A DNA stretch of 56,797 nucleotides, taken from a virus (taxonomy: Duplodnaviria; Caudoviricetes). The position numbers and the translations under genes are program-made. The notes below the pieces were generated by a model. The model was given only the letters and a program-made list of their open reading frames with translations. It was not told the DNA's origin and made no database searches. The stretch is from positions 1 to 56,797 of IMG/VR virus record IMGVR_UViG_3300045586_000026. One strand, given 5' to 3'. This document shows positions 419-47,942 of the stretch, one piece after another; position 1 is the first letter of the stretch, and each line of letters begins with the position of its first letter.

Positions 419-493
419 ACTGCTATCGTCTATCGGTTAGGACACCAGGTTTTCATCCTGGTAAGCGGGGTTCGACTCCCCGTAGCAGTACCA
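419..493 (+). tRNA. tRNA-Glu(TTC)
   Basis: Acceptor ACTGCTA/TAGCAGT, anticodon arm CCAGG-TTTTCAT-CCTGG, GTTCGA T-loop, CCA. Confidence 0.95.
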
Positions 494-588
494 TATTAAA
501 GCACACTACTTGCCCGACTGCAAATGTCGTGGTAAACTACTAAAGAAACAGGTTCGAATCCTGGGGACTGGTAGTGTTCTTCAATATG
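491..588 (+). ncRNA. Family B structured element 1 (contains a T-arm-like hairpin)
   Basis: Terminal stem CATATTAAAGCACACTAC/GTAGTGTTCTTCAATATG enclosing CAGG-TTCGAAT-CCTG. Confidence 0.55.
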
Positions 589-597
589 TTAAATTTA

Positions 598-672
598 GGT
601 GCGTTCATATAATGGTCATTATCGCGGATTGTCTATCCGTAGACGGGAGTTCGATTCTCCCACGCATCGCCA
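598..672 (+). tRNA. tRNA-Asp(GTC)
   Basis: Cloverleaf, anticodon loop TTGTCTA, CCA. Confidence 0.95.
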
Positions 673-679
673 AGTTTTT

Positions 680-754
680 GGGGGATTCATATACTGGGTA
701 TTATGCCTGCCTTGCACGTAGGTCAAAAGAGTTCGATTCTCTTATCCTCCACCA
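680..754 (+). tRNA. tRNA-Ala(TGC)
   Basis: Cloverleaf, loop CTTGCAC, G3:U70 pair, CCA. Confidence 0.95.
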
Positions 755-761
755 GTTTTTC

Positions 762-835
762 GCGGGGTTCGTATAGTGGTAATACCTTAGCCTTCCAAGC
801 TAAAGCGAGGAGTTCGATTCTCCTACCCCGCTCCA
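762..835 (+). tRNA. tRNA-Gly(TCC)
   Basis: Cloverleaf, loop CTTCCAA, U discriminator, CCA. Confidence 0.95.
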
Positions 836-841
836 AGTTAT

Positions 842-920
842 CTGTGTGTAATGTCAGTCTGGTCAGACGGCCTGGTTTGGAACTAGGAGGCCGCAGGTTC
901 GAATCCTGCCACACAGACCA
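842..920 (+). tRNA. tRNA-Pro(TGG)
   Basis: Cloverleaf, loop TTTGGAA, CCA. Confidence 0.93.
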
Positions 921-977
921 AGAAACTCTCCCTTGCATGCGGAGTATAATGAGATAAGTAGTATGCAAACAAATTTA

Positions 978-1054
978 GCCCTTGTGACGGAATTGGTATA
1001 CGTACTGGTCTTAGAAACCAGGTTCTGGGAGTTCAAGTCTCCCCGAGGGCACCA
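978..1054 (+). tRNA. tRNA-Leu(TAG), short variable arm
   Basis: Loop CTTAGAA, acceptor GCCCTTG/CGAGGGC, CCA. Confidence 0.9.
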
Positions 1055-1060
1055 AACAAA

Positions 1061-1152
1061 GGAAAGTAATGCAGCGGGGTTGGTCCTGCGACCAGCCTTG
1101 AAAACTGGGTTCTCAGAAATGGGATGGGGTTCGACTCCTCTGCTTTCCGCCA
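1061..1152 (+). tRNA. tRNA-Ser(TGA)
   Basis: Loop CTTGAAA, long variable arm, G discriminator, CCA. Confidence 0.9.
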
Positions 1153-1157
1153 GATAT

Positions 1158-1233
1158 ATCGACGTAGCTCATCAGGTAGAGCACCGGACTGAAAATTCGG
1201 GTGTGGTTGGTTCGAGTCCAACCGTCGGTACCA
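1158..1233 (+). tRNA. tRNA-Phe(GAA)
   Basis: Loop CTGAAAA, cloverleaf, CCA. Confidence 0.93.
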
Positions 1234-1239
1234 ATCAAT

Positions 1240-1314
1240 AGCCTTATAGCTCAGAGGAAGAGCAATCGCTTGATAAGCGATAGGTCGACATTTCAAAATT
1301 GTCTAAGGCTACCA
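1240..1314 (+). tRNA. tRNA-Ile(GAT)
   Basis: Loop TTGATAA, cloverleaf, CCA. Confidence 0.92.
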
Positions 1315-1319
1315 ATTTT

Positions 1320-1379
1320 AGGATCAGTTCAGCAAAAACTTAAAACTTTCTCTTATTCAGAAACTAAAAGTTGATCCTG
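1320..1379 (+). ncRNA. Family A (Y-RNA-like) copy 1
   Basis: AGGATCA-GTTCAGCAA...TTGATCCTG terminal stem; internal TTTCT-CTTATTC-AGAAA hairpin. Confidence 0.75.
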
Positions 1380-1387
1380 TTTTATTT

Positions 1388-1472
1388 GGAGTAGAAGCAT
1401 CAATGGTGATGCAGTGGACTGTAAATCCGCCGCCTTCGGGCACGCCTGGTTCGATCCCAGGATACTCCACCA
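1388..1472 (+). tRNA. tRNA-Tyr(GTA)
   Basis: Loop CTGTAAA, variable arm, CCA. Confidence 0.92.
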
Positions 1473-1479
1473 ATTTTAT

Positions 1480-1555
1480 TCCCTAGTAGCTCAGAGGTAG
1501 TAGCAAACGACTGTTAATCGTTAGGTCACACGTTCGATCCGTGTCTGGGGAGCCA
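1480..1555 (+). tRNA. tRNA-Asn(GTT)
   Basis: Loop CTGTTAA, cloverleaf, GCCA. Confidence 0.93.
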
Positions 1556-1561
1556 ATTTAA

Positions 1562-1657
1562 CCACTGTAGACTTGGTTGTCCGAGTTTGCGCAGCTCGAG
1601 GAGACGGTTCGATTCCGTTCATGGACTTAGCGGGTTCGATTCCCGCACAGTGGGCCA
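1562..1657 (+). ncRNA. Atypical tRNA-like RNA with two T-arms (GCG anticodon)
   Basis: Acceptor CCACTGT/ACAGTGG plus GCCA; CGAGT-TTGCGCA-GCTCG; two GGTTCGATTCC arms. Confidence 0.7.
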
Positions 1658-1661
1658 GTTT

Positions 1662-1827
1662 TGTAAGTGTAGATGTTGAGAAAGCATGGCGTCGAAAACC
1701 ATGCGAATGAGTCCCACCGCAACGTGGCTAAACTAGTAAGCTCTGTTATCAACTGTTACTGCGTACCTCTAACCCTAACGTACACTGGGCGAAATGGTTC
1801 CGAATGAGTGAGGCGGAACTACTTACA
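1662..1827 (+). ncRNA. Unknown structured RNA
   Basis: Terminal stem TGTAAGT(G)TAG/CTACTTACA with several internal hairpins, between tRNA genes. Confidence 0.6.
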
Positions 1828-1837
1828 GATTCAATAT

Positions 1838-1912
1838 GGGGAAGAAACTTTGACGGTGAAGTCCTGCCTCTTAAGCAGAGAGAACCGAGTTCGAATCTCG
1901 GCATCCCCACCA
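1838..1912 (+). tRNA. tRNA-Lys(CTT)
   Basis: Loop CTCTTAA, T-arm CCGAG-TTCGAAT-CTCGG, CCA. Confidence 0.85.
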
Positions 1913-1914
1913 AG

Positions 1915-2056
1915 AATTAGTCGGATTAATTACCCGAGATAGTAGATAGTAGACGGTGTTGGCACCACCATCGTCTTTGCAGTGATACTGCGTCAGGGAG
2001 CCCGAAAGGGTAACTTGAGAAACACTGGGGTAAGAGTCCCAAGTTTGTGTCAGCAA
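1915..2056 (+). ncRNA. Unknown structured RNA
   Basis: GC-rich hairpins AGACGGTG/CATCGTCT, GCAGT-gat-ACTGC, CCC-GAAA-GGG inside the tRNA operon. Confidence 0.5.
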
Positions 2057-2061
2057 TTTTT

Positions 2062-2118
2062 AGGATACATTCAGCAAAATTAAAAATTTCACTGTAAATG
2101 AAAAACAAACGTATCCTG
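2062..2118 (+). ncRNA. Family A copy 2 (Tyr-like anticodon stem-loop)
   Basis: AGGATAC-ATTCAGCAA...GTATCCTG; TTTCA-CTGTAAA-TGAAA. Confidence 0.75.
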
Positions 2119-2126
2119 TTGAACAT

Positions 2127-2202
2127 GCGCCGTTAGTTATAATGGAGAATATACGAGGCTACGAACTTCGGGATGGTGGTTCGATTCCATCACGGCGCAC
2201 CA
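2127..2202 (+). tRNA. tRNA-Arg(ACG)
   Basis: Loop CTACGAA, cloverleaf, CCA. Confidence 0.93.
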
Positions 2203-2263
2203 AATAGATTGTACATTATAACTTTTGTATGATATAATTACTTTATAACACATAGGATATATT

Positions 2264-2425
2264 ATGCTTAAACCTTCGAAAACATTTAGAATCTGGAAAG
2301 AAACGAAACGTGCTATGGCAACTATCGTCGATCCAGTTCAGCGTAACATTTATAAGAATGCAATGATTCAGGCTCAGTTAACCTCTGAGTTGCCTCCAGT
2401 TCGCGATAAGAGCGACAAGAAGTAA
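2264..2425 (+). CDS. Small basic hypothetical protein (53 aa, not in ORF track)
   Basis: Own TGTACA/TATAAT promoter (~2210-2238), AGGA RBS, ORF MLKPSKTFRIWKETKR...DKSDKK. Confidence 0.7.
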   Translation: MLKPSKTFRIWKETKRAMATIVDPVQRNIYKNAMIQAQLTSELPPVRDKSDKK

Positions 2426-2432
2426 AGATTTT

Positions 2433-2488
2433 AGGATGCGTCCAGCAAGCAAAAAAATTCAACTTGTAATTGAAAAATAAGCATCCTG
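2433..2488 (+). ncRNA. Family A copy 3 (Thr-like anticodon stem-loop)
   Basis: AGGATGC-GTCCAGCAA...GCATCCTG; TTCAA-CTTGTAA-TTGAA. Confidence 0.75.
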
Positions 2489-2496
2489 TTGTATAT

Positions 2497-2575
2497 CGCG
2501 GAGTAGGGGAGTCTAGTCGTCCCCGCCAGTCTCATAAGCTGGAGATCGCAGGTGCGAATCCTGCCTCCGCAACCA
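2497..2575 (+). tRNA. tRNA-Met(CAT), initiator-like
   Basis: Loop CTCATAA, C1:A72 mismatch (CGCGGAG/CTCCGCA), CCA. Confidence 0.88.
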
Positions 2576-2579
2576 GTTT

Positions 2580-2645
2580 AGGATAGTTTCTGCACAAAAT
2601 ACAGAACACCAACTTTTACTTGACATGTTCGTCAACACTATCCTG
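2580..2645 (+). ncRNA. Family A copy 4
   Basis: AGGATAG-TTTCTGCAC...CTATCCTG; possible CAA-CTTTTAC-TTG loop. Confidence 0.7.
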
Positions 2646-2653
2646 TTGTATTT

Positions 2654-2729
2654 GCCCTTATAGCTCATTTGGTAGAGCAACCGCCTTGTAAGCGGTAGGT
2701 GGTCAGTTCGAAACCGACTGAGGGCACCA
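2654..2729 (+). tRNA. tRNA-Thr(TGT)
   Basis: Loop CTTGTAA, cloverleaf, CCA. Confidence 0.95.
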
Positions 2730-2797
2730 TATTAAAGCACATTCGATATGCTCACAGCATATAGAGACATATGAAACGTGAGTGTGCTCCAATATGG
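2727..2797 (+). ncRNA. Family B structured element 2
   Basis: CCATATTAAAGCACATTC...GAGTGTGCTCCAATATGG terminal stem. Confidence 0.55.
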
Positions 2798-2845
2798 TCA
2801 GTACTATCGACGGATAGTATCCATAATCGGGAGTCATGACCCGAT

Positions 2846-2923
2846 GAACTCGTAGTCTTCTAATGGTTAGGATGCTCTTACTGGGTGATACAGGTTCGAA
2901 TCCTGTCTACAATGAGTTCGCAA
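2846..2923 (+). ncRNA. Degenerate tRNA-like RNA with stunted anticodon arm
   Basis: GAACTC-GTAG/CTAC-aat-GAGTTC stem, TAATGGTTA D-loop, ACAGG-TTCGAAT-CCTGT T-arm, ends GCAA not CCA. Confidence 0.55.
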
Positions 2924-2937
2924 GTTTAAAAAGGTTT

Positions 2938-3036
2938 AGGATCAGTTCCGCAAACCCAACTCTTTAATTGTAAGCAATTTAGTATGCCTCTTGAGTTATA
3001 CTAGATTTTTTATACTTGAAATGTAAACTGATCCTG
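2938..3036 (+). ncRNA. Family A copy 5 (Ser-like anticodon stem-loop plus extra hairpins)
   Basis: AGGATCA-GTTCCGCAA...CTGATCCTG; TTTATA-CTTGAAA-TGTAAA. Confidence 0.72.
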
Positions 3037-3039
3037 CCT

Positions 3040-3114
3040 GGTTCCATAGCACAGCGGTAGTGCACCTCCTTCATACGGAGATGGTCGTTAGTTCGATTCT
3101 AACTGGAACCACCA
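3040..3114 (+). tRNA. tRNA-CAT (elongator Met or Ile2)
   Basis: Loop TTCATAC, cloverleaf, CCA. Confidence 0.9.
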
Positions 3115-3138
3115 ATAGTTTTAATATATAGTTTTATT

Positions 3139-3215
3139 CGGAATGTAGCGCAGCCTGGTAGCGCACCTCGTTTGGGACGAGGGGGTCCAAGGTTCGAATC
3201 CTTGTATTCCGACCA
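3139..3215 (+). tRNA. tRNA-Pro(TGG), second copy
   Basis: Loop TTTGGGA, host-like CGGAATGTAGCGCAGCCTGGTAGCGC. Confidence 0.95.
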
Positions 3216-3224
3216 TTTTTAATC

Positions 3225-3298
3225 GCTCTTTTAGTATAAAGGCATTACAATACATTGGTAATGTATAGACGCTGGATCGTTACCAGCAAGGAGCACCA
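3225..3298 (+). tRNA. tRNA-Thr(GGT)
   Basis: ATACA-TTGGTAA-TGTAT; non-canonical T-loop ATCGTTA; CCA. Confidence 0.85.
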
Positions 3299-3308
3299 AG
3301 GAGTAACT

Positions 3309-3515
3309 ATGAGTGATGGCGGTAAAGGGTCTAAGCCAAGACCATTTAGTGTAAGTGATATTGAATACGCAGACCGATGGGAAGCGATATTCCACAAAGA
3401 CAAGAAACCTGAATTGAGAGAAGTGGTTGAACATAGTAGTCACAAGATGTTGACTGCGGAAAATCACCTTCAAGCTCTAGCCGATGAGAATCAACGACTA
3501 GGTTTGTACGATTAA
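3309..3515 (+). CDS. Hypothetical protein
   Basis: AGGAG RBS before ATG 3309 (MSDGGKGSKPRP...); the upstream part of the track ORF overlaps a tRNA. Confidence 0.75.
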   Translation: MSDGGKGSKPRPFSVSDIEYADRWEAIFHKDKKPELREVVEHSSHKMLTAENHLQALADENQRLGLYD

Positions 3516-3554
3516 CATGGCTCAGTCCTCTACGTAAGTACGATTGAGTTCTCT

Positions 3555-3640
3555 GCGGGTGTGATGAAATTGGTAGTACATAGGAGACTTAAAATCTCCC
3601 GCCGCAAGGCGTGCCGGTTCGAGTCCGGCCACCCGCACCA
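3555..3640 (+). tRNA. tRNA-Leu(TAA)
   Basis: Loop CTTAAAA, long variable arm, CCA. Confidence 0.95.
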
Positions 3641-3645
3641 AATTT

Positions 3646-3762
3646 AGGATCAGTTCAGCAAACTTATATTTCAACCAGCGTTTTGTGGGTTCGAGTCCCA
3701 CCTTCTAAGTAATTGGAAGTAGTCAAATTGGTAAAGACAGCCGGCAATAAAAGTTGATCCTG
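3646..3762 (+). ncRNA. Family A copy 6: YrlA-like RNA with circularly permuted tRNA domain
   Basis: Family A stem enclosing T-arm (GTGGG-TTCGAGT-CCCAC), loop-closed acceptor stem (CTTCTA/TGGAAG), then D-arm (GTC-AAATTGGTAAA-GAC). Confidence 0.82.
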
Positions 3763-3770
3763 TTAGATAT

Positions 3771-3845
3771 ATCTCGATAGTGTAATTGGCAACACTCTGA
3801 TCTCCAAAATCAGCATTCTAGGTTCGAGTCCTAGTCGGGGTGCCA
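3771..3845 (+). tRNA. tRNA-Trp(CCA)
   Basis: Loop CTCCAAA, cloverleaf, GCCA. Confidence 0.9.
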
Positions 3846-3905
3846 AATAAGTCCTGGACACGCGGACTCTAAAACGAAGTGGATGTAAGTGGAATCCTTA
3901 CACCT

Positions 3906-3979
3906 GCGTGCTTAGTTTAATGGTAAAATGTTACGTTGCCAACGTTACGTCAGGAGTTCGATTCTCCTAGCCCGCACCA
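3906..3979 (+). tRNA. tRNA-Gly(GCC)
   Basis: Loop TTGCCAA, T-arm, CCA; some stem mismatches. Confidence 0.85.
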
Positions 3980-3990
3980 AAATATATTTT

Positions 3991-4019
3991 CAAAAGTCTT
4001 GTCATGAGACTTTTGTTTT
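3991..4019 (+). terminator. Intrinsic terminator of the tRNA operon
   Basis: CAAAAGTCTTG/ATGAGACTTTTG hairpin followed by T-tract. Confidence 0.7.
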
Positions 4020-4020
4020 A

Positions 4021-4028
4021 TATAAATA
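4021..4028 (+). promoter_or_regulatory. T4-type late promoter
   Basis: TATAAATA; also at 14588, 36431, 45255, 48389, 52327 and on the minus strand at 14273. Confidence 0.8.
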
Positions 4029-4211
4029 AATCTATCAAGGGAACTTGATGACGCTTACAGTGGCGAATCACTGTGGCAATGGTATGAACCTACGAATATA
4101 GCTCAAAGCTTGATCACAATCTGGCTTTGAATTGTAATTGTTAGTCTATACCTCTAGTAAAAACTGAGCAAACGCTGTTCCAGCTACGCTCACATTTAGA
4201 GGAAATCAAAA

Positions 4212-4766
4212 ATGGCTGATATGTTAACAACTGATCCGTTCTTCGCGCTTACATCACAAATCGGTGGAGTTCGTGAAAAGGTATCTGACTCTGTCTTTGA
4301 AAACTACAAACTTCAAGTAGCACAAACAAACGACATCAACAACCGCGCAATGCAGGTTGCTCTACACGATGCAAGCGAGCTATCTTCAATCAAGCAAGAA
4401 GTGTCAAACGGAACTCTACAGGCTATGCTTGCAGCTTCACGTACTGATGCTGCTATTGGTGCAACTGCTTCTGCAACGCAACGTACAATCTTCGAACAAG
4501 GCGAACTAACTCGTCGTTTAGTACAAGACTTGAATACCCAAAACCTAAACACCGCACTTATCAATACCAACACCGCACTTTCCGGTCTTGGTGGTCAGTA
4601 CGCTGGTCTTGGTCTTGCCTACGGCGGTGCTGTAGCTGCTTATCAAAGTGCTAATACTGTATCTTCAGTTAACGCATTAAATAGCGCTCTAGCTAGCAAT
4701 GGCATGATCAACACTGGTACCCTAAGCGGCGTGTCACAAGCTGCTACTCCAACTACAATCCGTTAA
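4212..4766 (+). CDS. Hypothetical late protein (Ala/Asn/Gln-rich, coat-like)
   Basis: 184 aa, GAGG RBS, highly expressed-type codon usage. Confidence 0.85.
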   Translation: MADMLTTDPFFALTSQIGGVREKVSDSVFENYKLQVAQTNDINNRAMQVALHDASELSSIKQEVSNGTLQAMLAASRTDAAIGATASATQRTIFEQGELTRRLVQDLNTQNLNTALINTNTALSGLGGQYAGLGLAYGGAVAAYQSANTVSSVNALNSALASNGMINTGTLSGVSQAATPTTIR

Positions 4767-4778
4767 TCGGAACTTGGT

Positions 4779-4949
4779 ATGTTTGGACGTAACTGGGGTT
4801 ACGGAGGCTATTATCCAAGAAGTTATCTAGCAGCTGGCATAGGGTTTCCCTATGGTGCTCTGCTTGGATACCCTTATTTTGGATACGGCTATCCAGGTTA
4901 TGGGTATGGCTACGGAGGCTACCGCACTTCGTACCTACCTTATTACTAA
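4779..4949 (+). CDS. Tyr/Gly/Pro-rich small protein (56 aa, not in ORF track)
   Basis: MFGRNWGYGGYYPRSYLAAGIGFPYGALLGYPYFGYGYPGYGYGYGGYRTSYLPYY. Confidence 0.75.
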   Translation: MFGRNWGYGGYYPRSYLAAGIGFPYGALLGYPYFGYGYPGYGYGYGGYRTSYLPYY

Positions 4950-5009
4950 AATGTAAATTAAACGGGCTGGCTCACGAGGCTGGCCCGTTTTCGTTTCAAG
5001 GAGAATGTT

Positions 5010-5201
5010 ATGATCGGATACCTATATCCATTTTATAGAAGTTATGTGCCTGCACCGTACCCAGTCTGGGGTTATGGTGGATACCCAATTGGAAACTTCG
5101 GCACAAATATCGTTGGTAGTGCAATCGCTAACAACAGTCTAATTAATACTGGCACAGCCGTTGGAGTCATCCAAACTGCCACGCCAACCGTCATCGGATA
5201 A
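5010..5201 (+). CDS. Tyr/Pro/Gly-rich small protein
   Basis: AAGGAG RBS; C-terminal motif shared with ORF 4212. Confidence 0.8.
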   Translation: MIGYLYPFYRSYVPAPYPVWGYGGYPIGNFGTNIVGSAIANNSLINTGTAVGVIQTATPTVIG

Positions 5202-5204
5202 ATC

Positions 5205-5966
5205 ATGTACAAGAAAATCACGCATCACATAGTCGAGGAACACTTCGACCACCCAGCAACACTTCCAAATGGAATGCTGACCGCCATGAATGGAGCACCA
5301 ATGCAAGCTCCGGTTGGATCCACCGCGCCAACTGAGGCGAGCTTTACTGCAACGTCTGGCGATCTACCACAGTACGTCATGACTGAGATGACGATGTTGT
5401 TCAGAATGGATGCGAGAACAGCTTGGTCCAAGTGGGTGTTCAGTCTCATGAACTACGCAGTTAGTTTGAATGGTGATCTACCCGGCACCGATCAAGTAAA
5501 GGGCCGTGTGCACAAGACCGCAATAGCGCTTGGCGAATTCATCATCCCATATTATGGATTGACCGCTGCAAATTCGTTGTCGACTGCGTTAATCGCGATC
5601 AATGACATTGGTATGCACTATGTTGAGGCTATGAAAGCTAAGAAATCACCTGAAGAGTTGGCAAAGATTGCAGCTGGATGGGATCCATATGTTGAAGATC
5701 TAGCGAAAGTTTTAAACGAGTTGAATCCAAACAATTGGCCTCACGCTCTTATCGAAGATATTGTAACCAACTTAGTTAAAGCATGGCAAGATCAATTGAC
5801 TGCTCGCGCTAAAGGTGACATCGTCGCCGACGAGATTGCGATTGATCGTATCAATAAGTTGGTGATTACTGGTTTACCTGACCACGTTAAGCATGGCTAT
5901 AGTAGCTTAGCTGACATCTTTAGTCGTGGCATCCTCGCGCAATTTCCAGCGATGTTTGCTGCGTAA
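5205..5966 (+). CDS. Helical-bundle protein resembling the Firmicutes family often labelled 'acetylglutamate kinase/glycosyltransferase' (LWxxHVxWTR family)
   Basis: Recognisable segments PYYG, LNELNPNNW, ARAKGDIVADE, C-terminal GILAQFP. Confidence 0.6.
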   Translation: MYKKITHHIVEEHFDHPATLPNGMLTAMNGAPMQAPVGSTAPTEASFTATSGDLPQYVMTEMTMLFRMDARTAWSKWVFSLMNYAVSLNGDLPGTDQVKGRVHKTAIALGEFIIPYYGLTAANSLSTALIAINDIGMHYVEAMKAKKSPEELAKIAAGWDPYVEDLAKVLNELNPNNWPHALIEDIVTNLVKAWQDQLTARAKGDIVADEIAIDRINKLVITGLPDHVKHGYSSLADIFSRGILAQFPAMFAA

Positions 5967-5969
5967 TAT

Positions 5970-6215
5970 ATGGCTCTAATTCATATCCCAGACTATCCAA
6001 AGAGTCTCGAGTCGACTGATCTTGAAGCGCACGTCGCGATATGTGCTGAGCGCTACAAGAAACTCGATGAGAACTCCGAGCGTATGGAAAAGAAGATAGA
6101 GCTTATGATTGAAACAAATAGAGAAAATAGGAAGATGTTCGTTGGTGCACTCGTAACGATAGCAACTGGCGTCATCTCTTATTTGCTCAGTAGTCTTATA
6201 CGTATGTATAGTTGA
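5970..6215 (+). CDS. Small coiled-coil plus C-terminal TM protein (holin/XhlA-like)
   Basis: LEAHVAICAERY motif, coiled coil, one hydrophobic helix. Confidence 0.6.
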   Translation: MALIHIPDYPKSLESTDLEAHVAICAERYKKLDENSERMEKKIELMIETNRENRKMFVGALVTIATGVISYLLSSLIRMYS

Positions 6216-6610
6216 GGTATATTATGATTAGTTTAGAAGAGTCTATAAAGAGATTGAAGTTGTTGAAGATGGCCCGCGATAAGCTTGGTGCTGAGTTGTT
6301 ACAAAAGCACAACGATTCATTTTTAAATTGGAAAAAAGAATGCGATGAAGCATGGGATAAAGACAAGAAGTTGTTGCCATACCATGTGCAGTCATATTAC
6401 CCAACTGAGAGTGAGATCGTCGCTAAAGCTGTTGAGCTATATGTCGCTACCGTCAACGCTGAAGTTAATGAAGATGAAAAGACAGAGGAACTCGTCGAAG
6501 AGATCAGTCCACAGACTATAGATGATTTTACACACGACAGCGAAGTTATCTCTATGGAGACCTTCAATAGAATAAAGAACAAAAATAAGAAAGATCCACC
6601 AGATGTCTAA
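6212..6610 (+). CDS. Hypothetical protein
   Basis: 132 aa ORF tightly packed in operon. Confidence 0.75.
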   Translation: MRYIMISLEESIKRLKLLKMARDKLGAELLQKHNDSFLNWKKECDEAWDKDKKLLPYHVQSYYPTESEIVAKAVELYVATVNAEVNEDEKTEELVEEISPQTIDDFTHDSEVISMETFNRIKNKNKKDPPDV

Positions 6611-7094
6611 TGTAGTCGGCATATATTCTAACAACACTTCACTGTTGACGTCGTATACTCACGCGCTCTCCAATCTAAATCAAAGCGTTGTTGCAGTTCA
6701 ATCTGCTAACAGCGGGATGGGAGGCTCTGGTAACGATGTAATCAACATTGGTACGATGGGAGAGCCCGGACCGCCTGGACCTCCAGGACCTCCGGGGCCT
6801 CCTGGCAATCCAAGCCCAGTCGCAGTCACTGAAGTTGCTACAGCCGAGTATACCGCATTATCAACTGATTACTTTCTATGTGTATTGGTTATAGCTCAAG
6901 TCGTAATCACGCTGCCAACAGGCATTCTCGGTACAGTCTACATAGTTAAAGACTGTAGTGGAAATGCTTCTGTTGCCTCACCTATTATCATACAAGGTAC
7001 TGCACAAAATGTGGATGGTGGAACCGCAACGATCAATGTTGCGTATGGAAGTGTAACGCTTATATTTAATGGCACTGACTGGAGTCTAGTGTAA
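6603..7094 (+). CDS. Collagen-repeat protein with C-terminal beta domain
   Basis: GEP(GPP)4 repeats; ITLPTG..GTVYIVKD..W motif shared with ORFs 7665 and 8073. Confidence 0.8.
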   Translation: MSNVVGIYSNNTSLLTSYTHALSNLNQSVVAVQSANSGMGGSGNDVINIGTMGEPGPPGPPGPPGPPGNPSPVAVTEVATAEYTALSTDYFLCVLVIAQVVITLPTGILGTVYIVKDCSGNASVASPIIIQGTAQNVDGGTATINVAYGSVTLIFNGTDWSLV

Positions 7095-7648
7095 TGTCAT
7101 ATAAAGCTCCATTAGCATCATTGACTGACTTTGGTATCATGAAGGTCGGCACTGGTCTGAGCGTAACCAATGGATTGGTGACGGCAACACTTGGCTTATT
7201 GAACTATGGATTCTTCACCGACAGTACCACGCAGACCAATCCAGTCGCGAGTGCCGTTAACATCGCAACGTTCAACGTAACAGGTCCAGCCAATGGCGTA
7301 AGTGTAGTTGGTGGCACTGCCGTCACAGTTGCCAATGCTGGTACTTACACTAAGATGTTTACATTGATTGTGTCAAAGACTTCTGGTGGTACGACAGACA
7401 TAAGCGTTTGGCTCAGACTGAACGGAGTCGACGTTGTAGGATCAAGACAAGATTTAGAATTAACAAACACCTTGGCGCTGATTTTTGCGTCGGGAAATTT
7501 TACTTTGAATATTCCAGCTGGCGGCAATATTCAATTGTGTTGGAGCAGCATTGACACCACTGTTGCTCTAACTGCTCTCCCAGCCGCCGTAACTCCCACA
7601 AGACCCACTGGCAATAGTGTCAAACTTACACTGACCAGAATTAGTTAA
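7094..7648 (+). CDS. Beta-sandwich (BclA-CTD/C1q-like) structural protein
   Basis: NGVSVVGGTAVTVANAGTY...VWLRLNG pattern typical of TNF/C1q-like jelly rolls. Confidence 0.6.
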   Translation: MSYKAPLASLTDFGIMKVGTGLSVTNGLVTATLGLLNYGFFTDSTTQTNPVASAVNIATFNVTGPANGVSVVGGTAVTVANAGTYTKMFTLIVSKTSGGTTDISVWLRLNGVDVVGSRQDLELTNTLALIFASGNFTLNIPAGGNIQLCWSSIDTTVALTALPAAVTPTRPTGNSVKLTLTRIS

Positions 7649-7664
7649 AAAGAAGGAAATAGAA

Positions 7665-8066
7665 ATGTCATATGCAAATAATTCACTATCGATCGCCGCA
7701 GGAACCGGCATCACAGTAACACCAACTACGGCCACAGGTGCTACCACACTTACGATCAGCACTGCTGGTACTGAGATCTTAGGCGTACGTATCGCAGTCG
7801 CTACACCAATCGCGGTTGTAGCAGCTACTGACGAAGTCGTAAGCATCGAAGTTCCAGGTCCAGTCGCAGTTGCTGTAACGCTACCAGCTGGTGTAACAGG
7901 ACAAGTATTTTATCTTAAGGATGGTCTTGGTCTAGCTGCTCCAGCAACACCAGTGACTATCACTCCAGTTGCTGGCACCATCGACGGCGCTGCGACTGCA
8001 ACCATCGACGCACCTTATGGCTCACTTACACTAGTTTACTCTGGCGTAGAGTGGAAGATCCTATAA
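7665..8066 (+). CDS. Beta-rich structural protein (paralog of 6603 and 8073 C-domains)
   Basis: VTLPAGVTGQVFYLKD...YGSLTLVYSGVEW. Confidence 0.75.
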   Translation: MSYANNSLSIAAGTGITVTPTTATGATTLTISTAGTEILGVRIAVATPIAVVAATDEVVSIEVPGPVAVAVTLPAGVTGQVFYLKDGLGLAAPATPVTITPVAGTIDGAATATIDAPYGSLTLVYSGVEWKIL

Positions 8067-8072
8067 TATATT

Positions 8073-8531
8073 ATGGCATACAGTAGACCAGTATTACCCG
8101 GCGTCGGGCTCAGACAACGTCCAGTCGCTACGACTCCAGCGCAGACTGGAATTCAACAGACGACTCTAGACGTTGACATCGCCACGACCTTTAGTCTTGG
8201 AGTAGTTCAAGTTGGTAGTGGTCTGAACATAACTCCAGCTGGAGTGCTGTCGACGATTAGTAACGGTTTTATCAATGTCACATTAACAAATATTAATTAC
8301 ACTGCAACTGTAGATGATTATTATATTGGTTGTACTAAGAAGGATATAACAGTTACACTTCCTCTTGGTATAGTTGGTAAGGTATACGTGATAAAGAGTC
8401 AATCTAATGGAAACATAGAAGTTGAAACAACTGGCGGACAAAAGATAGACTCAAGTTTAGATAAAACACTCGGTTCTAATGACAGCATCATCGTCGTGTT
8501 CGATGGCACTCGTTGGAATATCATAAATTAA
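8073..8531 (+). CDS. Beta-rich structural protein
   Basis: LGVVQVGSGLNIT motif (cf. 7094) plus VTLPLGIVGKVYVIK...FDGTRW. Confidence 0.75.
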   Translation: MAYSRPVLPGVGLRQRPVATTPAQTGIQQTTLDVDIATTFSLGVVQVGSGLNITPAGVLSTISNGFINVTLTNINYTATVDDYYIGCTKKDITVTLPLGIVGKVYVIKSQSNGNIEVETTGGQKIDSSLDKTLGSNDSIIVVFDGTRWNIIN

Positions 8532-8658
8532 TTTTGTTCTTTTGATAGATTTATTACACAAACGTATATATAGAAGACCACTGTAAAATAACAGTGTACA
8601 TTAATTCATACATGTGGTATAATTGATCTATCAAAACAACAAACTCATTGGAGTTTTG

Positions 8659-8862
8659 ATGGCTTACATAAAAACAAAAGAAGACGTTCTCAAAGTCTGC
8701 TTAACGATCCCACTTCTAGTGCGTGTTCTTGAGCTGGTCAGAGAAGACGTGAAGAGCGATGTGAATCTGCATAAAGTTCTCGAAGTGCTGCTACAACTTA
8801 GCGTTGATAGATGCCTAACGATGGATGATTACATGAAGATTGCAGAAGCAAATCCAAAATAA
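8659..8862 (+). CDS. Hypothetical protein
   Basis: Early promoter, GGAG RBS, ATG 8659. Confidence 0.7.
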   Translation: MAYIKTKEDVLKVCLTIPLLVRVLELVREDVKSDVNLHKVLEVLLQLSVDRCLTMDDYMKIAEANPK

Positions 8863-8918
8863 CAGTGTACATTAAATGGAAACTGTGGTATAATTAACCT
8901 AACAACGGAGGAATGAAT

Positions 8919-9050
8919 ATGAAACGAAAACCTATCGCTAGAGAACGTAACTGCTTCGTTCGTCTGGCCTTATTCCGAAAAGCAGGGTCACACCGCAAGA
9001 GCAACAAAGCTCTACGTAAAGTGACAAAGCAAACACAGGAATCGTGGTGA
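8919..9050 (+). CDS. Small Arg/Lys-rich protein (43 aa) overlapping the 5' end of tRNA-Lys
   Basis: GGAGG RBS; MKRKPIARERNCFVRLALFRKAGSHRKSNKALR... Confidence 0.6.
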   Translation: MKRKPIARERNCFVRLALFRKAGSHRKSNKALRKVTKQTQESW

Positions 9051-9113
9051 AATGGTTATCACAGCAGACTTTTAATCTGCCAGTTCCGGGTTCGAGTCCC
9101 GGTGGTTCCACCA
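9038..9113 (+). tRNA. tRNA-Lys(TTT)
   Basis: GCAGA-CTTTTAA-TCTGC, CCA. Confidence 0.95.
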
Positions 9114-9149
9114 TATTAAAGTGCATTCATTGAGTGTATTTCAATATGG
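9111..9149 (+). ncRNA. Family B element 3 (minimal hairpin)
   Basis: CCATATTAAAGTGCATTC-att-GAGTGTATTTCAATATGG. Confidence 0.55.
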
Positions 9150-9155
9150 TTTTAT

Positions 9156-9231
9156 GGTGATGTTAGTGTAATGGTCAGCACCAGAGATTGTGAATCTCTT
9201 AGTACGGGTTCGATACCCGTACGTCACCCCA
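9156..9231 (+). tRNA. tRNA-His(GTG)
   Basis: G-1:C73, loop TTGTGAA, CCA. Confidence 0.93.
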
Positions 9232-9239
9232 ATAAACAT

Positions 9240-9314
9240 GCCTCGGTAGCTCAGAGGAAGAGCAACGCTTTTACACGGCGAAGGTCGGGATTTCGAAATT
9301 CCCCTGAGGCACCA
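9240..9314 (+). tRNA. tRNA-Val(TAC)
   Basis: Loop TTTACAC, cloverleaf, CCA. Confidence 0.92.
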
Positions 9315-9331
9315 TAAACAAGGAGTCCAAC

Positions 9332-9532
9332 ATGGACATCAAGAAGATTGGTCTTACAAGAGAAGACTTAGGCGCGATAGTAGAAGCAATGGCTAAGTTC
9401 CCAGACGCAATGGGAGCTCATCTAATTCACGAAGAAGACGACGGTAAGTATACATTGGGACTCGGCGTTATGGCCACCATCAATGGCATGACCGGACACT
9501 TCATCGTTCCTCTCGCAATGGGAAAAGTTTGA
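9332..9532 (+). CDS. Hypothetical protein
   Basis: AAGGAG RBS, 66 aa. Confidence 0.75.
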   Translation: MDIKKIGLTREDLGAIVEAMAKFPDAMGAHLIHEEDDGKYTLGLGVMATINGMTGHFIVPLAMGKV

Positions 9533-9578
9533 TTGTTAAGGTGTACATTAAATCGTATACCTGATACAATAGAGTTAT

Positions 9579-9841
9579 GGGATGAGTACAGCAGTTAAAA
9601 CTATTACGCTCAAAACGGACGCCGAACTGAGGAAACATCGTAAGGTGTAACAACAACGGCTAGGTTGGAAAAGACTAGAGACCCTATTAGGATCTCGACG
9701 TTGGTGCCGAATCACTACCTAGTTCACATTACATGTGATATGCCAATGAATTGGATACGCCGATAGACCGGATAGTCTATTAATTTCAGGCTGGGTATAA
9801 GAGCCTTGGTTAGAAAACCAAACTAACGAACCACCATCCCG
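9579..9841 (+). ncRNA. Family A copy 7: long multi-hairpin RNA
   Basis: GGGATG-AGTACAGCAG...CATCCCG enclosing about 8 short hairpins; starts just after a promoter at 9542-9570. Confidence 0.7.
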
Positions 9842-9849
9842 GTATTTTT

Positions 9850-9913
9850 AGATTGAATTCTGCAACATAAAAAAAATGGCTGTCTGCTAGGACTTTAAAC
9901 TAGTATCAATCTG
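9850..9913 (+). ncRNA. Family A copy 8
   Basis: AGATTGA-ATTCTGCAA...TCAATCTG; directly upstream of the DUF2828 gene. Confidence 0.7.
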
Positions 9914-9938
9914 TTAACATTAAGAAAGTGAAATAATC

Positions 9939-11369
9939 ATGTCATCATTTGCTCAAGCCGTTCAAGGCCAATCCGCTCGTACCACTAACGGTATGAAGGC
10001 ACTCAAGTCTACCTCAGACGCATGTGTAGACCTATTCTTTAAGGTGGGTGCATCACGTGGTAAGAACATCACCAAGGATTTTGTCGCAGCTCTGGCTGAA
10101 GACCAAGACACCGCACTGCGTATCGCTCAATGGGCTCGTGACGCTCGTGGTGGTGCTGGTGAGCGTGAACTGTTCCGTAACATCCTAACCTACCTTGAAG
10201 GCACCAAGCCTGAACTGGCTCTTAAGCTGATGGCTAAGGTTCCAGAGATCGGACGTTGGGACGACCTGCTAGTGTTCAAGACTGCACCAATCAAGTCCAA
10301 GGCTTATGATATGTTGGGCGATGCCCTTCGTGCTAAGAATGGACTGGCTGCAAAGTGGACTCCTCGTAAGGGCGTTATCGCTCAAGAGATTCGTGAGCAC
10401 TTTGGTATGTCGCCTAAGTTCTATCGTAAGTCACTGGTTGAAATGACTAACGTTGTTGAGACCAACATGTGTGCTAAGGACTGGGACAACATCAACTTCT
10501 CCCATGTTCCATCGGTAGCTGCTGCTCGTTACAAGAAGGCATTCTCTCGTAACACTGAAACCTATGCTGCATACGTTGCTGCACTGGTTAAGGGTGAGGA
10601 TCCAAAGGTGAAGGTTAACGCCGGCGCCGTGTATCCATACGACGTGCTGAAGGGTTGTATCAACTCTTACGGTCGTGCTGCTTACAACAGCGATGAGAAG
10701 GCTGTGATCGTTAAGCAATGGGATGCACTGGAGAACTTCATCGGCGATGCTAATGTATTGGCGATGGTGGATGTATCCGGTTCCATGAGTTGTAAGGCTG
10801 GTGGAACTGCTTCAAAGAGCGAGACCACCTGTATGGAGGTTGCTATCTCCTTGGGATTGTATGTAGCTGATAAGAACAAGGGTAAGTTCAAGGATACGTT
10901 CCTGACCTTCTCGGGTTCGCCAGAACTGCTACACTTGAAGGGCGATGTGCTGCAGAAGATCGATCAAATGTCCAAGTCCAAGTGGGCTATGAACACCGAC
11001 CTAGTGAAGGCGTTCGAGAAGATCCTTCGTGTCGCTAAGGAAGGTAACGTAGCTCAAGAGGAAATGCCTGAGATGCTGTTGATCATGTCAGACATGCAGT
11101 TTGACCAGTGTGCTCGTTTCGACGATAGCGCAATGAAGATGATCGAACGTAAGTTTGAAGATGCAGGGTACGAACTTCCAAAGATCGTGTTCTGGAACAT
11201 CAGCGCTGCCGACAACGTGCCAGTGAAGTACGACACTCGTGGAGTAGCATTGGTATCAGGGTTCAGCCCTGCTATCATGAAAGCGGTACTGTCTGCGGAC
11301 ACTACTCAATTCACGCCTGAGTCAATCATGCGTAAAGCTATCGATATCCCACGATACGATCTGGCCTAA
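9939..11369 (+). CDS. DUF2828-family protein (TROVE/Ro60-like helical region plus vWA/MIDAS domain)
   Basis: TTNG...VDLFF, ARDARGGAGER, GRWDDLL, AAKWTPR; MIDAS DVSGSM, NTD, SDMQFD, IVFWN, SGFS. Confidence 0.88.
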   Translation: MSSFAQAVQGQSARTTNGMKALKSTSDACVDLFFKVGASRGKNITKDFVAALAEDQDTALRIAQWARDARGGAGERELFRNILTYLEGTKPELALKLMAKVPEIGRWDDLLVFKTAPIKSKAYDMLGDALRAKNGLAAKWTPRKGVIAQEIREHFGMSPKFYRKSLVEMTNVVETNMCAKDWDNINFSHVPSVAAARYKKAFSRNTETYAAYVAALVKGEDPKVKVNAGAVYPYDVLKGCINSYGRAAYNSDEKAVIVKQWDALENFIGDANVLAMVDVSGSMSCKAGGTASKSETTCMEVAISLGLYVADKNKGKFKDTFLTFSGSPELLHLKGDVLQKIDQMSKSKWAMNTDLVKAFEKILRVAKEGNVAQEEMPEMLLIMSDMQFDQCARFDDSAMKMIERKFEDAGYELPKIVFWNISAADNVPVKYDTRGVALVSGFSPAIMKAVLSADTTQFTPESIMRKAIDIPRYDLA

Positions 11370-11371
11370 AC

Positions 11372-11394
11372 AAAAGGACCTTCGGGTCCTTTTT
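11372..11394 (+). terminator. Intrinsic terminator (CUUCGG loop)
   Basis: AAAAGGACC-TTCG-GGTCCTTTTT; a near-identical one lies at 21217-21237. Confidence 0.9.
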
Positions 11395-31733: not shown

Positions 31734-32180
31734 ATGAAAAAAGGTGAGATGCTCGGAACAATGCTGGTCATTGCCACCAACGCCCACGCTGGTCAATTCG
31801 ACCGTGGCGGTGCTCCCTACATCTTGCATCCTCTGAAGGTCATGCACTACCTCAAGAGTGACGACGAGGAGCTCATGTGTATGGCTCTTGGTCATGACGT
31901 GATCGAGGACACTCCAGTAACTTACAAGGACCTACGGGACGCTGGTATCTCAGAACGAGTTATCACCGGCATCCGGGCTTTGACTAAGCAACCCGGCCAG
32001 ACTCTAGACGAGTACAAGGCCGGTGTCTTCGCCAGCGAGGATGCCATGCGAGTCAAGATGGCCGACCTACGGCACAACACAGACATCCGTCGCCTGAAGG
32101 GTGTTACAGAAAAGGACATTGCTCGAATGGCAAAGTACCATCTGTTCTACACGGAGATTAAAGTTCGTCTGGCAGCATAA
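31734..32180 (+). CDS. HD-domain hydrolase (SpoT/Mesh1-like small alarmone hydrolase)
   Basis: AHAGQFDRGGAPYILHP, GHDVIEDT, VKMADLRHN. Confidence 0.88.
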   Translation: MKKGEMLGTMLVIATNAHAGQFDRGGAPYILHPLKVMHYLKSDDEELMCMALGHDVIEDTPVTYKDLRDAGISERVITGIRALTKQPGQTLDEYKAGVFASEDAMRVKMADLRHNTDIRRLKGVTEKDIARMAKYHLFYTEIKVRLAA

Positions 32181-39801: not shown

Positions 39802-39872
39802 TGTAGTACATCTAACGGTGTACATTAATTCGTCATTATGTTATAATTGGTCCATAGACAAAAAGGATCGTG

Positions 39873-43976: not shown

Positions 43977-44474
43977 ATGAAAATATATCTTGACATGGAT
44001 GGAGTTCTAGCGAACTTCGATAAACAATACGGATTACTATTTGGAGTACGTCCCACTGACACTGAGAATCGCACTAAGCATTTTTGGAGTCACTGGGACG
44101 AATTCGTCACTGGTAAGAACTTTACCAAATTAGAACTTATGCCTGGTGCTGAGACTCTAATGAAGGCGTGTGATCTACTTAAAGTTCCTGTGGAAATTCT
44201 TACTTCTACTGGCAATGAAAAGTACTATGATACTATTGCTGCTCAAAAAACTGAGTGGCTGAAGACTCATAACATCGCATACAAGCCTAACTTCGTCGCT
44301 GGTGGTTTAAAGAAAGCACAGTACGCCGATCCTTGGAATATCCTCATTGATGATACTCCTAAAGTCGTCGACGCCTACGTTAAAGCTGGTGGTACTGCTA
44401 TTCTGCATACCGATGCAGATAAGACTATCGCTGAACTTAGTAAACTCTATTTAGAATATCAAGGTGGACAATAA
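43977..44474 (+). CDS. HAD-family 5'(3')-deoxyribonucleotidase
   Basis: YLDMDGVLANF, ILTS, K..W, LIDD. Confidence 0.9.
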   Translation: MKIYLDMDGVLANFDKQYGLLFGVRPTDTENRTKHFWSHWDEFVTGKNFTKLELMPGAETLMKACDLLKVPVEILTSTGNEKYYDTIAAQKTEWLKTHNIAYKPNFVAGGLKKAQYADPWNILIDDTPKVVDAYVKAGGTAILHTDADKTIAELSKLYLEYQGGQ

Positions 44475-47534: not shown

Positions 47535-47570
47535 TTGTACTTTAATTCGTAATTGTGGTATAATAAACTA

Positions 47571-47925: not shown

Positions 47926-47942
47926 ATTAACTTGGAGAATTT

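Follow-up and report, generated by a model that had tools for sequence, protein, structure and literature searches.

Handle-bearing RNA elements beside a DUF2828 gene of predicted Ro60-like fold in a viral record and related phage loci

The viral record IMGVR_UViG_3300045586_000026 (the window below, meaning the whole record of 56,797 bases, estimated at 32% of a genome) contains eight short elements that share one terminal handle, together with a gene for a protein of the Pfam families DUF2828 and DUF7788. Here, we report that these elements belong to a widespread RNA family with one conserved handle, that the family is tightly and strand-specifically associated with the gene for this protein, which has a predicted Ro60 fold, and that the interiors of its members mimic parts of tRNAs. 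The system is probably a particle of the Ro60/Y RNA kind, in which one protein would bind interchangeable tRNA-mimicking RNAs, and we regard it as a variant of that kind with an RNA family for which no description was found in the literature searched. An earlier note, made from the letters of the window, had proposed eight Y-RNA-like elements with the DUF2828 protein as their binder; its observation is confirmed, and its interpretation is supported as far as computation reaches. The display of anticodon arms and the likeness to Dictyostelium Class I RNAs, both described below, are additions to it. The elements and their gene are arranged as follows.

1320 to 1378, + strand: E1, 59 nt, between tRNA-Ile and tRNA-Tyr; helix AGGATCA/TGATCCT, motif G-TTCAGCAA, tail GTT.
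2062 to 2117, + strand: E2, 56 nt; helix AGGATAC/GTATCCT, interior 5-bp hairpin with loop CTGTAAA.
2433 to 2487, + strand: E3, 55 nt; helix AGGATGC/GCATCCT, interior hairpin TTCAA-CTTGTAA-TTGAA.
2580 to 2644, + strand: E4, 65 nt; helix AGGATAG/CTATCCT, motif T-TTCTGCAC.
2938 to 3035, + strand: E5, 98 nt; helix AGGATCA/TGATCCT, motif G-TTCCGCAA.
3646 to 3761, + strand: E6, 116 nt; interior a permuted tRNA "elbow".
9542 to 9570, + strand: promoter-like site before E7 (TGTACA, 17-nt spacer, TG-TACAAT), a consensus match only.
9579 to 9840, + strand: E7, 262 nt; helix GGGATG/CATCCC, motif G-TACAGCAG, first RNA of the DUF2828 transcription unit.
9850 to 9912, + strand: E8, 63 nt; helix AGATTGA/TCAATCT, motif A-TTCTGCAA, interior 9-nt loop GACTTTAAA.
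9939 to 11369, + strand: DUF2828 and DUF7788 gene, 476 aa (P0001), assigned with Pfam, PHROG and AlphaFold/Foldseek.
11372 to 11393, + strand: terminator-like hairpin with a T run, closing the unit of E7, E8 and the DUF2828 gene.

All eight elements were found by reading of the sequence, every one on the + strand. Each is built of a T-rich 5' flank, an (A/G)G start, a 7-bp helix that closes the ends, a motif, a variable interior and a G-T-T end. The compensated changes that had been claimed for the terminal helix were recovered among the 5' strands AGGATCA, AGGATAC, AGGATGC, AGGATAG, GGGATG and AGATTGA; the helix of E8 differs from AGGATCA at three pairs, each of them compensated. The unpaired motif and A-rich linker described in the earlier note are likewise present in all eight, as one free base, T-[T/C/A]-C-N-G-C-A and an A-rich stretch, with A, C or G in the position after CNGCA. 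For the element at 9579, the six Watson-Crick pairs of GGGATG/CATCCC stood and the 7-bp regularity did not, the helix having an A·C mismatch and a flanking U·G; in relatives of this element the helix is of 8 bp. Six elements do lie among tRNAs, and E7 and E8 do lie between the promoter-like site at 9542-9570 and the ATG at 9939. The end of that site is 8-9 nt from the first base of E7, and the end of E8 is 26 nt from the ATG.

The pattern AGGATNNNTYCNGCA occurs in the window six times forward and not once in reverse, and reading it backwards as a control gave 0 and 0. With one mismatch allowed, 11 matches were obtained against 5.6 expected, a number that 3 of 100 shuffles reached; the one-mismatch matches at 10765, 46321, 47343 and 50360 were rejected as elements, being inside coding sequence. 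In a scan with Rfam 15, no family reached its gathering score on any of the elements, in agreement with the novelty claimed for them. Weak matches to HIV_POL-1_SL, SNORA15, speF and TMV_UPD-PK3 were taken as chance.

The family was then delimited in a sample of 60 viral loci around DUF2828 relatives plus the window, 975,011 bases in total. A strict scan (TT, a 7-nt stem, N, NNCNGCA, the stem complement within 450 nt, then G) returned 232 elements on the strand of the gene versus 8 on the opposite strand. Their stems comprise at least 10 different sequences, each with a perfect complement (AGAATCC, AGGAAGG, AGGTTAA, AGAGTAG, AGGCTAC, AGTTTGG, TGGATCA and others). Because the strict scan itself demands a stem, an unbiased test was run with the motif [TA]CAGCAA as the only seed and with stems swapped among occurrences as the control. 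On the + strand, a 7-bp complement followed downstream in 207 of 401 occurrences versus 62.5 after swapping, and on the - strand in 29 of 300 versus 37.2.

In 48 aligned short elements, covering the terminal and an interior helix, changes on both sides were seen at 11 of 12 pairs (6 of 7 in the terminal helix). The covariation score was 0.597 versus 0.140 in shuffles, with none of 500 as high and slid partners at 0.02-0.16; the aligned rows were partly chosen for their helices, so that the seed test and the strand counts are the fairer tests. A covariance model, R1, was built from the same 48 elements, three of which are in the window (E1, 65.4 bits, E 4.2e-15; E2, 77.4 bits; E3, 77.2 bits). 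It recovered seven of the eight window elements at E <= 6e-6 and nothing on the - strand; four of the seven were outside the training set, namely E4 (35.5 bits, E 5.5e-7), E5 (31.6 bits, E 6.1e-6), E6 (42.1 bits, E 8.7e-9) and E8 (36.1 bits, E 3.6e-7). Both the covariation and the recovery by R1 bear out the shared handle. The sole element missed, E7 (9579-9840), is a member of a conserved long sub-family of 176-287 nt, in which the terminal helix is present in all 14 aligned copies and interior helices have compensatory changes; its interior could be assigned to no known fold.

The elements fall into length classes of 50-69 nt, 90-130 nt and about 160-280 nt. The scan fixes positions C11, G13, C14, A15 and the tail G at +1 of the logo, which also shows G2 (92%), U9 (88%), A12 (81%) and A16 (81%), with T at tail positions +2 (81%) and +3 (83%). 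G·U pairs occur in the helices, and one purine follows the helix. Short inverted termini, many copies per genome and variable interiors would also be expected of miniature mobile DNA with terminal inverted repeats, or of DNA recombination sites, that are not RNAs at all. We consider this reading extremely improbable, given the strand bias relative to the neighbouring gene (232 versus 8), the G·U pairs, the one-sidedness of the conserved motif, the compensatory changes in interior hairpins and the fixed place before the start codon; no target-site duplication was seen in the flanks read.

The place of the elements with respect to the DUF2828 gene was examined in 61 loci, from viral records and named phages, that extend 350 nt or more upstream of it. 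In 58 of them, the end of an element is no more than 200 nt (mostly 13-50 nt) ahead of the start codon, versus 1 of 61 in the - strand control. The exceptions are EC6 and Kingsolomon, where three to four elements are directly downstream of the gene, and Vibrio phage K566, where a mini element extends across the ribosome-binding site and the ATG. This mini handle, AGACATT-A-TACAGCAA...AATGTCT (locus L075, about 3963-4006), encloses both and looks like a translational operator. Among distant named phages, whose gene is 31-48% identical to that of the window, elements were found beside it in all eight examined:

LMLPA3, host Listeria: elements beside the DUF2828 gene.
EC6, host E. coli: elements beside the DUF2828 gene.
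Kingsolomon, host Mycobacterium: elements beside the DUF2828 gene.
BUCT-ZZ01, host Synechococcus: elements beside the DUF2828 gene.
F371, host Campylobacter: elements beside the DUF2828 gene.
K566, host Vibrio: elements beside the DUF2828 gene.
PJN02, host Bacillus: elements beside the DUF2828 gene.
phiM12, host Sinorhizobium: elements beside the DUF2828 gene.

A further set consisted of 80 contigs from bacterial genome bins and one archaeal bin, with 31-71% identity in the protein, 73 of which had enough upstream DNA. A + strand element was present within 500 nt upstream or 700 nt downstream of the gene in 56 of the 73 and a - strand element in 11, and the total counts were 111 versus 14. The Woesearchaeota-binned contig (L130), which may be a binned virus, has the DUF2828 gene and two upstream handle elements at 2814-2872 and 2881-2939. 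Co-occurrence was also assessed in a panel of ten named phages picked for their tRNA arrays. All three phages with DUF2828 had an R1 match (EC6, E 0.0024; KVP40, 3.8e-8; Aeh1, 1.3e-6), and none of the seven without it (T4, T5, Bxz1, K, SPO1, S-PM2 and CcrColossus) had a credible one. A match in S-PM2 (22.8 bits, E 0.0055) was counted as false since it falls within a coding region and lacks the terminal helix, and matches in phages K and T5 (E 0.03-0.56) were rejected for partial coverage of the model. The co-occurrence anticipated in the earlier note is thus present in phage loci (58 of 61, 8 of 8 and 3 of 3 versus 0 of 7) and in the bacterial and archaeal bins (56 of 73).

These data bear on two other explanations. 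According to the first, the elements are processing signals or spacers of polycistronic tRNA transcripts, such as minihelices for RNase P, E or Z, and are unrelated to the DUF2828 protein, tRNA arrays simply being a common neighbourhood of its gene. Six of the eight window elements are indeed between tRNAs, the 7-bp helix followed by one purine resembles an acceptor stem with its discriminator base, and the T-rich and GTT flanks could be cleavage sites. However, CAGCAA is kept across phages of Gram-positive, Gram-negative, cyanobacterial and actinobacterial hosts, the RNases of which differ; the elements of BUCT-ZZ01 flank the gene in a 9.4-kb stretch with no annotated tRNA, and the sole annotated tRNA of Kingsolomon is about 1.2 kb upstream. 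Moreover, the absence of credible matches from tRNA-rich phages without DUF2828 (T4, T5, Bxz1, CcrColossus and S-PM2) argues against this explanation, which we judge unlikely. According to the second, equally unlikely in our estimate, the elements are cis-acting leaders (operators or attenuators) of the DUF2828 mRNA, the array copies being decayed duplicates with no role in trans. The last element does end 13-50 nt before the ATG in most loci, and that of K566 spans the ribosome-binding site and start codon, but most copies are kilobases away from the gene and yet retain the helix, motif and tail with compensatory changes, all copies of EC6 and Kingsolomon are downstream, and the interiors contain conserved tRNA-like modules. 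Autoregulation would in any case be compatible with the Ro60-like particle rather than an alternative to it.

The interiors were searched directly for hairpins resembling anticodon arms (a stem of 4-6 bp and a 7-nt loop C/U-U-NNN-A/G-N), with shuffled sequences as controls. Such a hairpin is present in 48 of 88 distinct short elements, whereas 200 shuffles averaged 1.6 and never exceeded 5; its stem is of 5 bp in 43 of the 48, and its loop is almost always C-U-NNN-A-A. The direct search was preferred to minimum free energy folding, which under-detects weak A/U hairpins (an anticodon-like loop in 9 of 88 elements) and was set aside. The "anticodons" displayed are TGT (19), TTT (7), GGA (7), GTT (6), GAA (2) and GCT (2), and GTA, TCT, GTC, CTT and GAT once each, including loops of Lys, Tyr, Asn, Asp and Arg. 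Among 76 such loops in elements of up to 135 nt, 30 equal the anticodon loop of a tRNA called by ARAGORN in the same locus and 64 equal a tRNA loop in some locus. Of the longer elements, 49 of 130 contain a T arm, versus 1.19 in shuffles.

The window elements illustrate this range. The loop of E2 is the anticodon loop of the window's tRNA-Tyr (1388-1469), that of E3 is the anticodon loop of tRNA-Thr(TGT) at 2654-2729, and the hairpin loop of E5, CTTGAAA, is, by eye, identical to that of the tRNA-Ser(TGA)-like gene (1061-1148). E1 has a hairpin with the 7-nt loop CTTATTC, and E4 has a weak hairpin with the loop CTTTTAC, identical in six of seven positions to a tRNA-Lys loop, plus a second hairpin. 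In E6, the interior is composed of a T arm (GTGGG-TTCGAGT-CCCAC), a loop-closed acceptor-like stem and a D-arm-like hairpin, which is also the layout of YrlA. Recurrent modules of other kinds were also observed. One, ...GCTAAAC-TTTTGG-TTGTC-TAGC-GACAAAA with the loop TAGC, is found in loci L009, L016, L018, L020, L025, L029, L042, L046 and L056; another, CTAG-GACTTTAAA-CTAG, belongs to the element immediately preceding the gene in the window, L007, L033 and L041.

With a 7-bp closing helix followed by a purine, a 5-bp stem bearing a 7-nt C-U-NNN-A-A loop and, in some cases, a T arm, the elements might be taken for truncated tRNAs that lack the D arm or T arm, either translational or pseudogenes, with the helix as acceptor stem. 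This seems very unlikely to us. GTT and not CCA follows the helix, although the array tRNAs that were read encode CCA, and no tRNA call by ARAGORN or Rfam (RF00005) overlaps any of the eight elements. Elements that differ in their "anticodon" share an invariant C-A-G-C-A-A where a tRNA has its D arm, complete tRNAs of the same array already possess these loops, and many members are without an anticodon-like hairpin.

The product of the DUF2828 gene was matched in a Pfam scan (E <= 0.01) by DUF7788 (2.5e-51) and DUF2828 (1.6e-24), and it belongs to PHROG 850, "RNA-binding protein" (1.8e-139); mycobacteriophage relatives are annotated as "Ro-like RNA binding protein". A phmmer search against PDB sequences found nothing meaningful. 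An AlphaFold model of high confidence was obtained from a 99-sequence alignment (predicted local distance difference test 92.7, predicted template modelling score 0.91), and its predicted architecture is a helical ring joined to a vWA domain with an intact MIDAS. The MIDAS residues D278, S280, S282, T353 and D385 are invariant in the 99 aligned sequences; together with the model, they agree with the helical region and vWA/MIDAS domain that the earlier note had expected. In a Foldseek search of the PDB, the best 12 matches were all Ro60 (structures 2i91, 1yvr, 1yvp, 9nep, 9nfa, 9nf8, 2nvo, 9kop, 9l5y and 9nen), full length, with E values from 2.5e-9 to 3.2e-6, 514-568 aligned columns and TM-scores normalised to the query of 0.37-0.64. 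The next matches were vWA-only proteins, a thousand-fold worse (E >= 4.7e-3). From the full-length Ro60 matches and the invariant MIDAS, the protein is predicted to be Ro60-like in fold, outside TROVE by sequence. The proposed comparison with Ro60 therefore turned out in favour of the earlier note.

Relatives of this protein are numerous: 7,982 of 8,000 scored candidates were relatives, 6,180 cluster representatives were obtained at E <= 0.001, and 711 named phage records contain a match. A search among longer proteins also found eukaryotic DUF2828 proteins in plants and fungi. In Listeria phage LMLPA3 (locus L070, 6848-8059), genes for an RtcB-type RNA ligase (1.3 kb downstream), an HD phosphohydrolase and a "tRNA amidotransferase" are just downstream of DUF2828. 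The bacterial Rsr-YrlA-RtcB operon has the same neighbourhood theme. In the window, an RNA ligase gene (39870-40901), a metallophosphoesterase (42416-43312), a nucleotidase/kinase-like gene (43977-44471) and an HD hydrolase (31734-32177) were noted, which could form a set for healing and sealing of RNA ends; the ligase, metallophosphoesterase and hydrolase, together with the RtcB of LMLPA3, fit a setting of RNA damage or repair.

Comparison with Ro60 and Y RNAs shows several common traits. The phage protein is, as modelled, a ring plus a vWA domain with MIDAS, like Ro60; several small RNA genes adjoin the protein gene on the same strand; and a terminal helix closes the RNAs. As in YrlA (passages of PMC4201824), some handle RNAs bear a module with a tRNA-like T arm and D arm. 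A tRNA-like domain on an end-formed stem is found, by reading, in E6 and not in the short elements. According to passages of PMC12135203, the canonical Ro60 of a phage, Thermus phage phiLo, binds two Y-like RNAs, Yrl1 and Yrl2, encoded upstream of its own gene, where the handle RNAs are also found. There are differences as well. The phage protein belongs to Pfam DUF2828/DUF7788 and not to TROVE, and the handle is CAGCAA beside a plain 7-bp helix, whereas Y and YrlA RNAs, as described in parts of PMC4201824 and PMC12135203, have a bulged helix or a GNCGAA/CGAA motif. Handle RNAs also number up to eight or more per genome, and most are of 52-66 nt and show an anticodon arm only. The YrlA model RF02553 aligned to E6 at 3678-3741 (model positions 24-84) with 23.2 bits and E 0.11, short of its cut-off of 69, and gave no match at E <= 1 on the four tandem elements of L009. 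With the YrlA model failing and TROVE unmatched, the label "Y RNA" is an analogy.

In the particle proposed here, the eight elements would be genes for small stable RNAs of one family, each with a handle (a 7-bp end-joining helix, a single-stranded U-[U/A]-C-A-G-C-A-A by its 5' strand and a G-U-U 3' tail) and an interior module that differs from one RNA to the next. Early-type phage promoters would drive their transcription, with some copies embedded in the tRNA array and others forming the 5' leader of the DUF2828 mRNA, and the RNAs would presumably be excised and stable. The DUF2828/DUF7788 protein may bind the handle in the way that Ro60 holds Y RNAs by their terminal stem, and the outcome would be a series of particles in which the protein is constant and the RNA module exchangeable. 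Many of these modules copy tRNA parts: a 5-bp stem with a C-U-NNN-A-A loop in some, a T arm or an entire tRNA elbow in others. The particles would most likely serve to engage tRNA-recognising proteins as decoys or adaptors during infection, with host anticodon nucleases and other tRNA-directed defence or repair enzymes as prime targets. The position of the last element, about 20-50 nt ahead of the start codon and over it in one Vibrio phage, suggests that the DUF2828 protein also represses its own mRNA. Phage tRNAs are known to escape or replace the targets of tRNA-cleaving defences, including PARIS, Retron-Eco7, Septu and PrrC. The handle RNAs share their genomic place, the tRNA array, but lack CCA and a D arm and, in most cases, a T arm as well; only a decoy or adaptor role would be open to them, not the replacement of a tRNA in translation.

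Published work on relatives is consistent with parts of this scheme. In passages of PMC12282133, the best HHpred match of CKA15_055 from Listeria phage CKA15 is Rsr, the protein has been detected in virions, and unannotated regions upstream of its gene are described as very highly transcribed. In LMLPA3, three elements are within one promoter-headed gap. Passages of two recent papers (PMC11482910 and PMC12282133) guess at "Y RNAs" for such a protein and do not say which RNAs these are, and no paper describing the handle motif was found in the literature on DUF2828, phage Ro-like proteins or Y RNAs, and Ro60 in anti-defence.

Several points weigh against the proposed particle. TROVE was not matched in the Pfam scan at E <= 0.01, and a profile search against PDB sequences reached Ro60/TROVE weakly (E 0.045-0.12) and in the MIDAS region only. 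The terminal-helix covariation statistics are partly circular, because the elements were gathered by a stem requirement. In 17 of the 73 genome-bin loci, the scan detected no element in the near window, and about 40 of the 88 short elements are without an anticodon-like hairpin and bear other recurrent modules. With respect to expression, RNA-library contigs from four studies span parts of the array and, at the start of the DUF2828 unit, 9568-10259 (for example 9568-10156, 9676-10259, 2177-2575 and 1115-1416); they are weak support, since contigs show no ends and may include DNA. Some stretches of 5600-8400 were left bare, from which nothing was concluded. Bas63 gp130, to which part of PMC11482910 ascribes a Ro60-like fold and activity against the Ppl defence, is a putative DUF2828 homologue, as judged from its position and from the Felixounavirus EC6 locus; this activity is the only reported phenotype of a relative and has no known tRNA involvement. 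Finally, binding of the handle by the protein is proposed from genomic association, and the decoy or adaptor role is one that we infer.

As judged from its genes, the window is placed with the T4-like phages; it encodes a gp32-type single-strand DNA-binding protein, a helicase loader, a baseplate hub, RNase H, a small terminase subunit and a tail fibre of 2,173 aa. It has no close named relative, since megablast of its first 12 kb against named phages gave tRNA-sized matches only. Its other features are as follows.

419-3979 and 9038-9314: tRNA array.
250, 2210, 8595, 8866 and 9542: promoter-like sites (TGTACA, 17 nt, TG-TATAAT or TACAAT), from a consensus scan.
3991-4015: terminator-like hairpin, bounding a transcription unit.
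1061-1148: tRNA-like gene missed by ARAGORN (Rfam tRNA-Sec-like, 33.9 bits; by eye tRNA-Ser with a TGA anticodon).
1388-1469: tRNA-Tyr missed by ARAGORN (Rfam tRNA, 33.6 bits).
1838-1909: tRNA-like gene missed by ARAGORN (Rfam tRNA, 39.5 bits; by eye Lys, CTT).
2849-2914: tRNA-like gene missed by ARAGORN (Rfam tRNA, 26.7 bits, under the cut-off).
47517-47926: permuted, two-piece transfer-messenger RNA (tmRNA) with the tag peptide ANDTLYALAA (Rfam beta_tmRNA, 129.5 bits; tmRNA_permuted, 129.2 bits).

The phage-specific promoter consensus, TGTACATTAAAT...TG-TATAAT, was noted at the head of tRNA and small-RNA units and of several small open reading frames, with further copies by eye near 47536, 49680, 50030 and 50627; the tmRNA is directly 3' of a promoter-like sequence of this type. 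Array segments 494-597, 1556-1660, 1661-1837, 1910-2061 and 2730-2848 have no assignment and may be other kinds of small RNA. The segment 1556-1660 has an acceptor-like helix enclosing two T-arm-like motifs and a GCCA end, and the word ATTAAAG(C/T)(A/G)CA is found 3' of tRNAs at 494, 2730 and 9106.

The only Rfam model that aligned over its full length to the short elements was RF01414, the Dictyostelium Class I RNA (Dicty_Class_I_RNA). It scored 33.1 bits on 2063-2118 (E2), 13.6 bits on E1 and 20.7 bits on E3, and its best score in the records of five relatives was 33.9 bits; the cut-off of 41.5 was reached neither in the window nor in any of the five. The excerpts of Kjellin et al. 2021 (PMC7919456) used here describe Class I RNAs as 42-65 nt long, with a 6-bp end-joining stem that varies in a compensatory manner, an 11-nt motif by the 5' strand, a conserved 5' G and a 3' CUGU, the C of which pairs with the 5' G. 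The handle RNAs are alike in their length of about 55-60 nt, their A/U-rich variable interior, their (A)AG start, an end-joining helix conserved in structure and not in sequence, and many, often clustered gene copies. The Rfam consensus ...CUUACAGCAA corresponds to the phage N-U-[U/A]-C-A-G-C-A-A after the 5' strand, the alignment placing UU-CAGCAA against CUUACAGCAA and ...CCUG against ...UCUG, and the 3' C-U-G-U, with its C paired to the conserved 5' G, is common to both. In contrast, Class I RNAs, in the same excerpts, have a eukaryotic host and a DUSE promoter about 60 nt upstream, where the phage has sigma-70-like TGTACA-17-TATAAT sites; their known direct binder is the RRM protein Rnp1A (Cibp), and those excerpts report them as absent outside Dictyostelia.

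The likeness could reflect either common descent or convergence on a common binding protein. A tentative idea, which we think has a better chance of being wrong than right, is that phage handle RNAs and dictyostelid Class I RNAs are one RNA kind, in which the helix, CAGCAA and the CUGU tail form the recognition site of DUF2828-family Ro-like proteins, the phage version being a programmable display of tRNA anticodon arms against tRNA-targeting immunity. In that case, a DUF2828 partner would offer a means of testing what Class I RNAs do, and the plant and fungal DUF2828 proteins should have handle RNAs that are yet to be discovered.

DUF2828 proteins are very common in large phages, and the window and its relatives define the RNAs that accompany them by a short, searchable handle and by interiors that copy anticodon arms or elbows of tRNAs. 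The system offers a concrete and mutable candidate RNA-protein pair in cultured phages, a candidate route by which phages may bait or redirect tRNA-recognising enzymes, and RNAs whose structure unexpectedly matches that of the orphan Class I RNAs of Dictyostelium.

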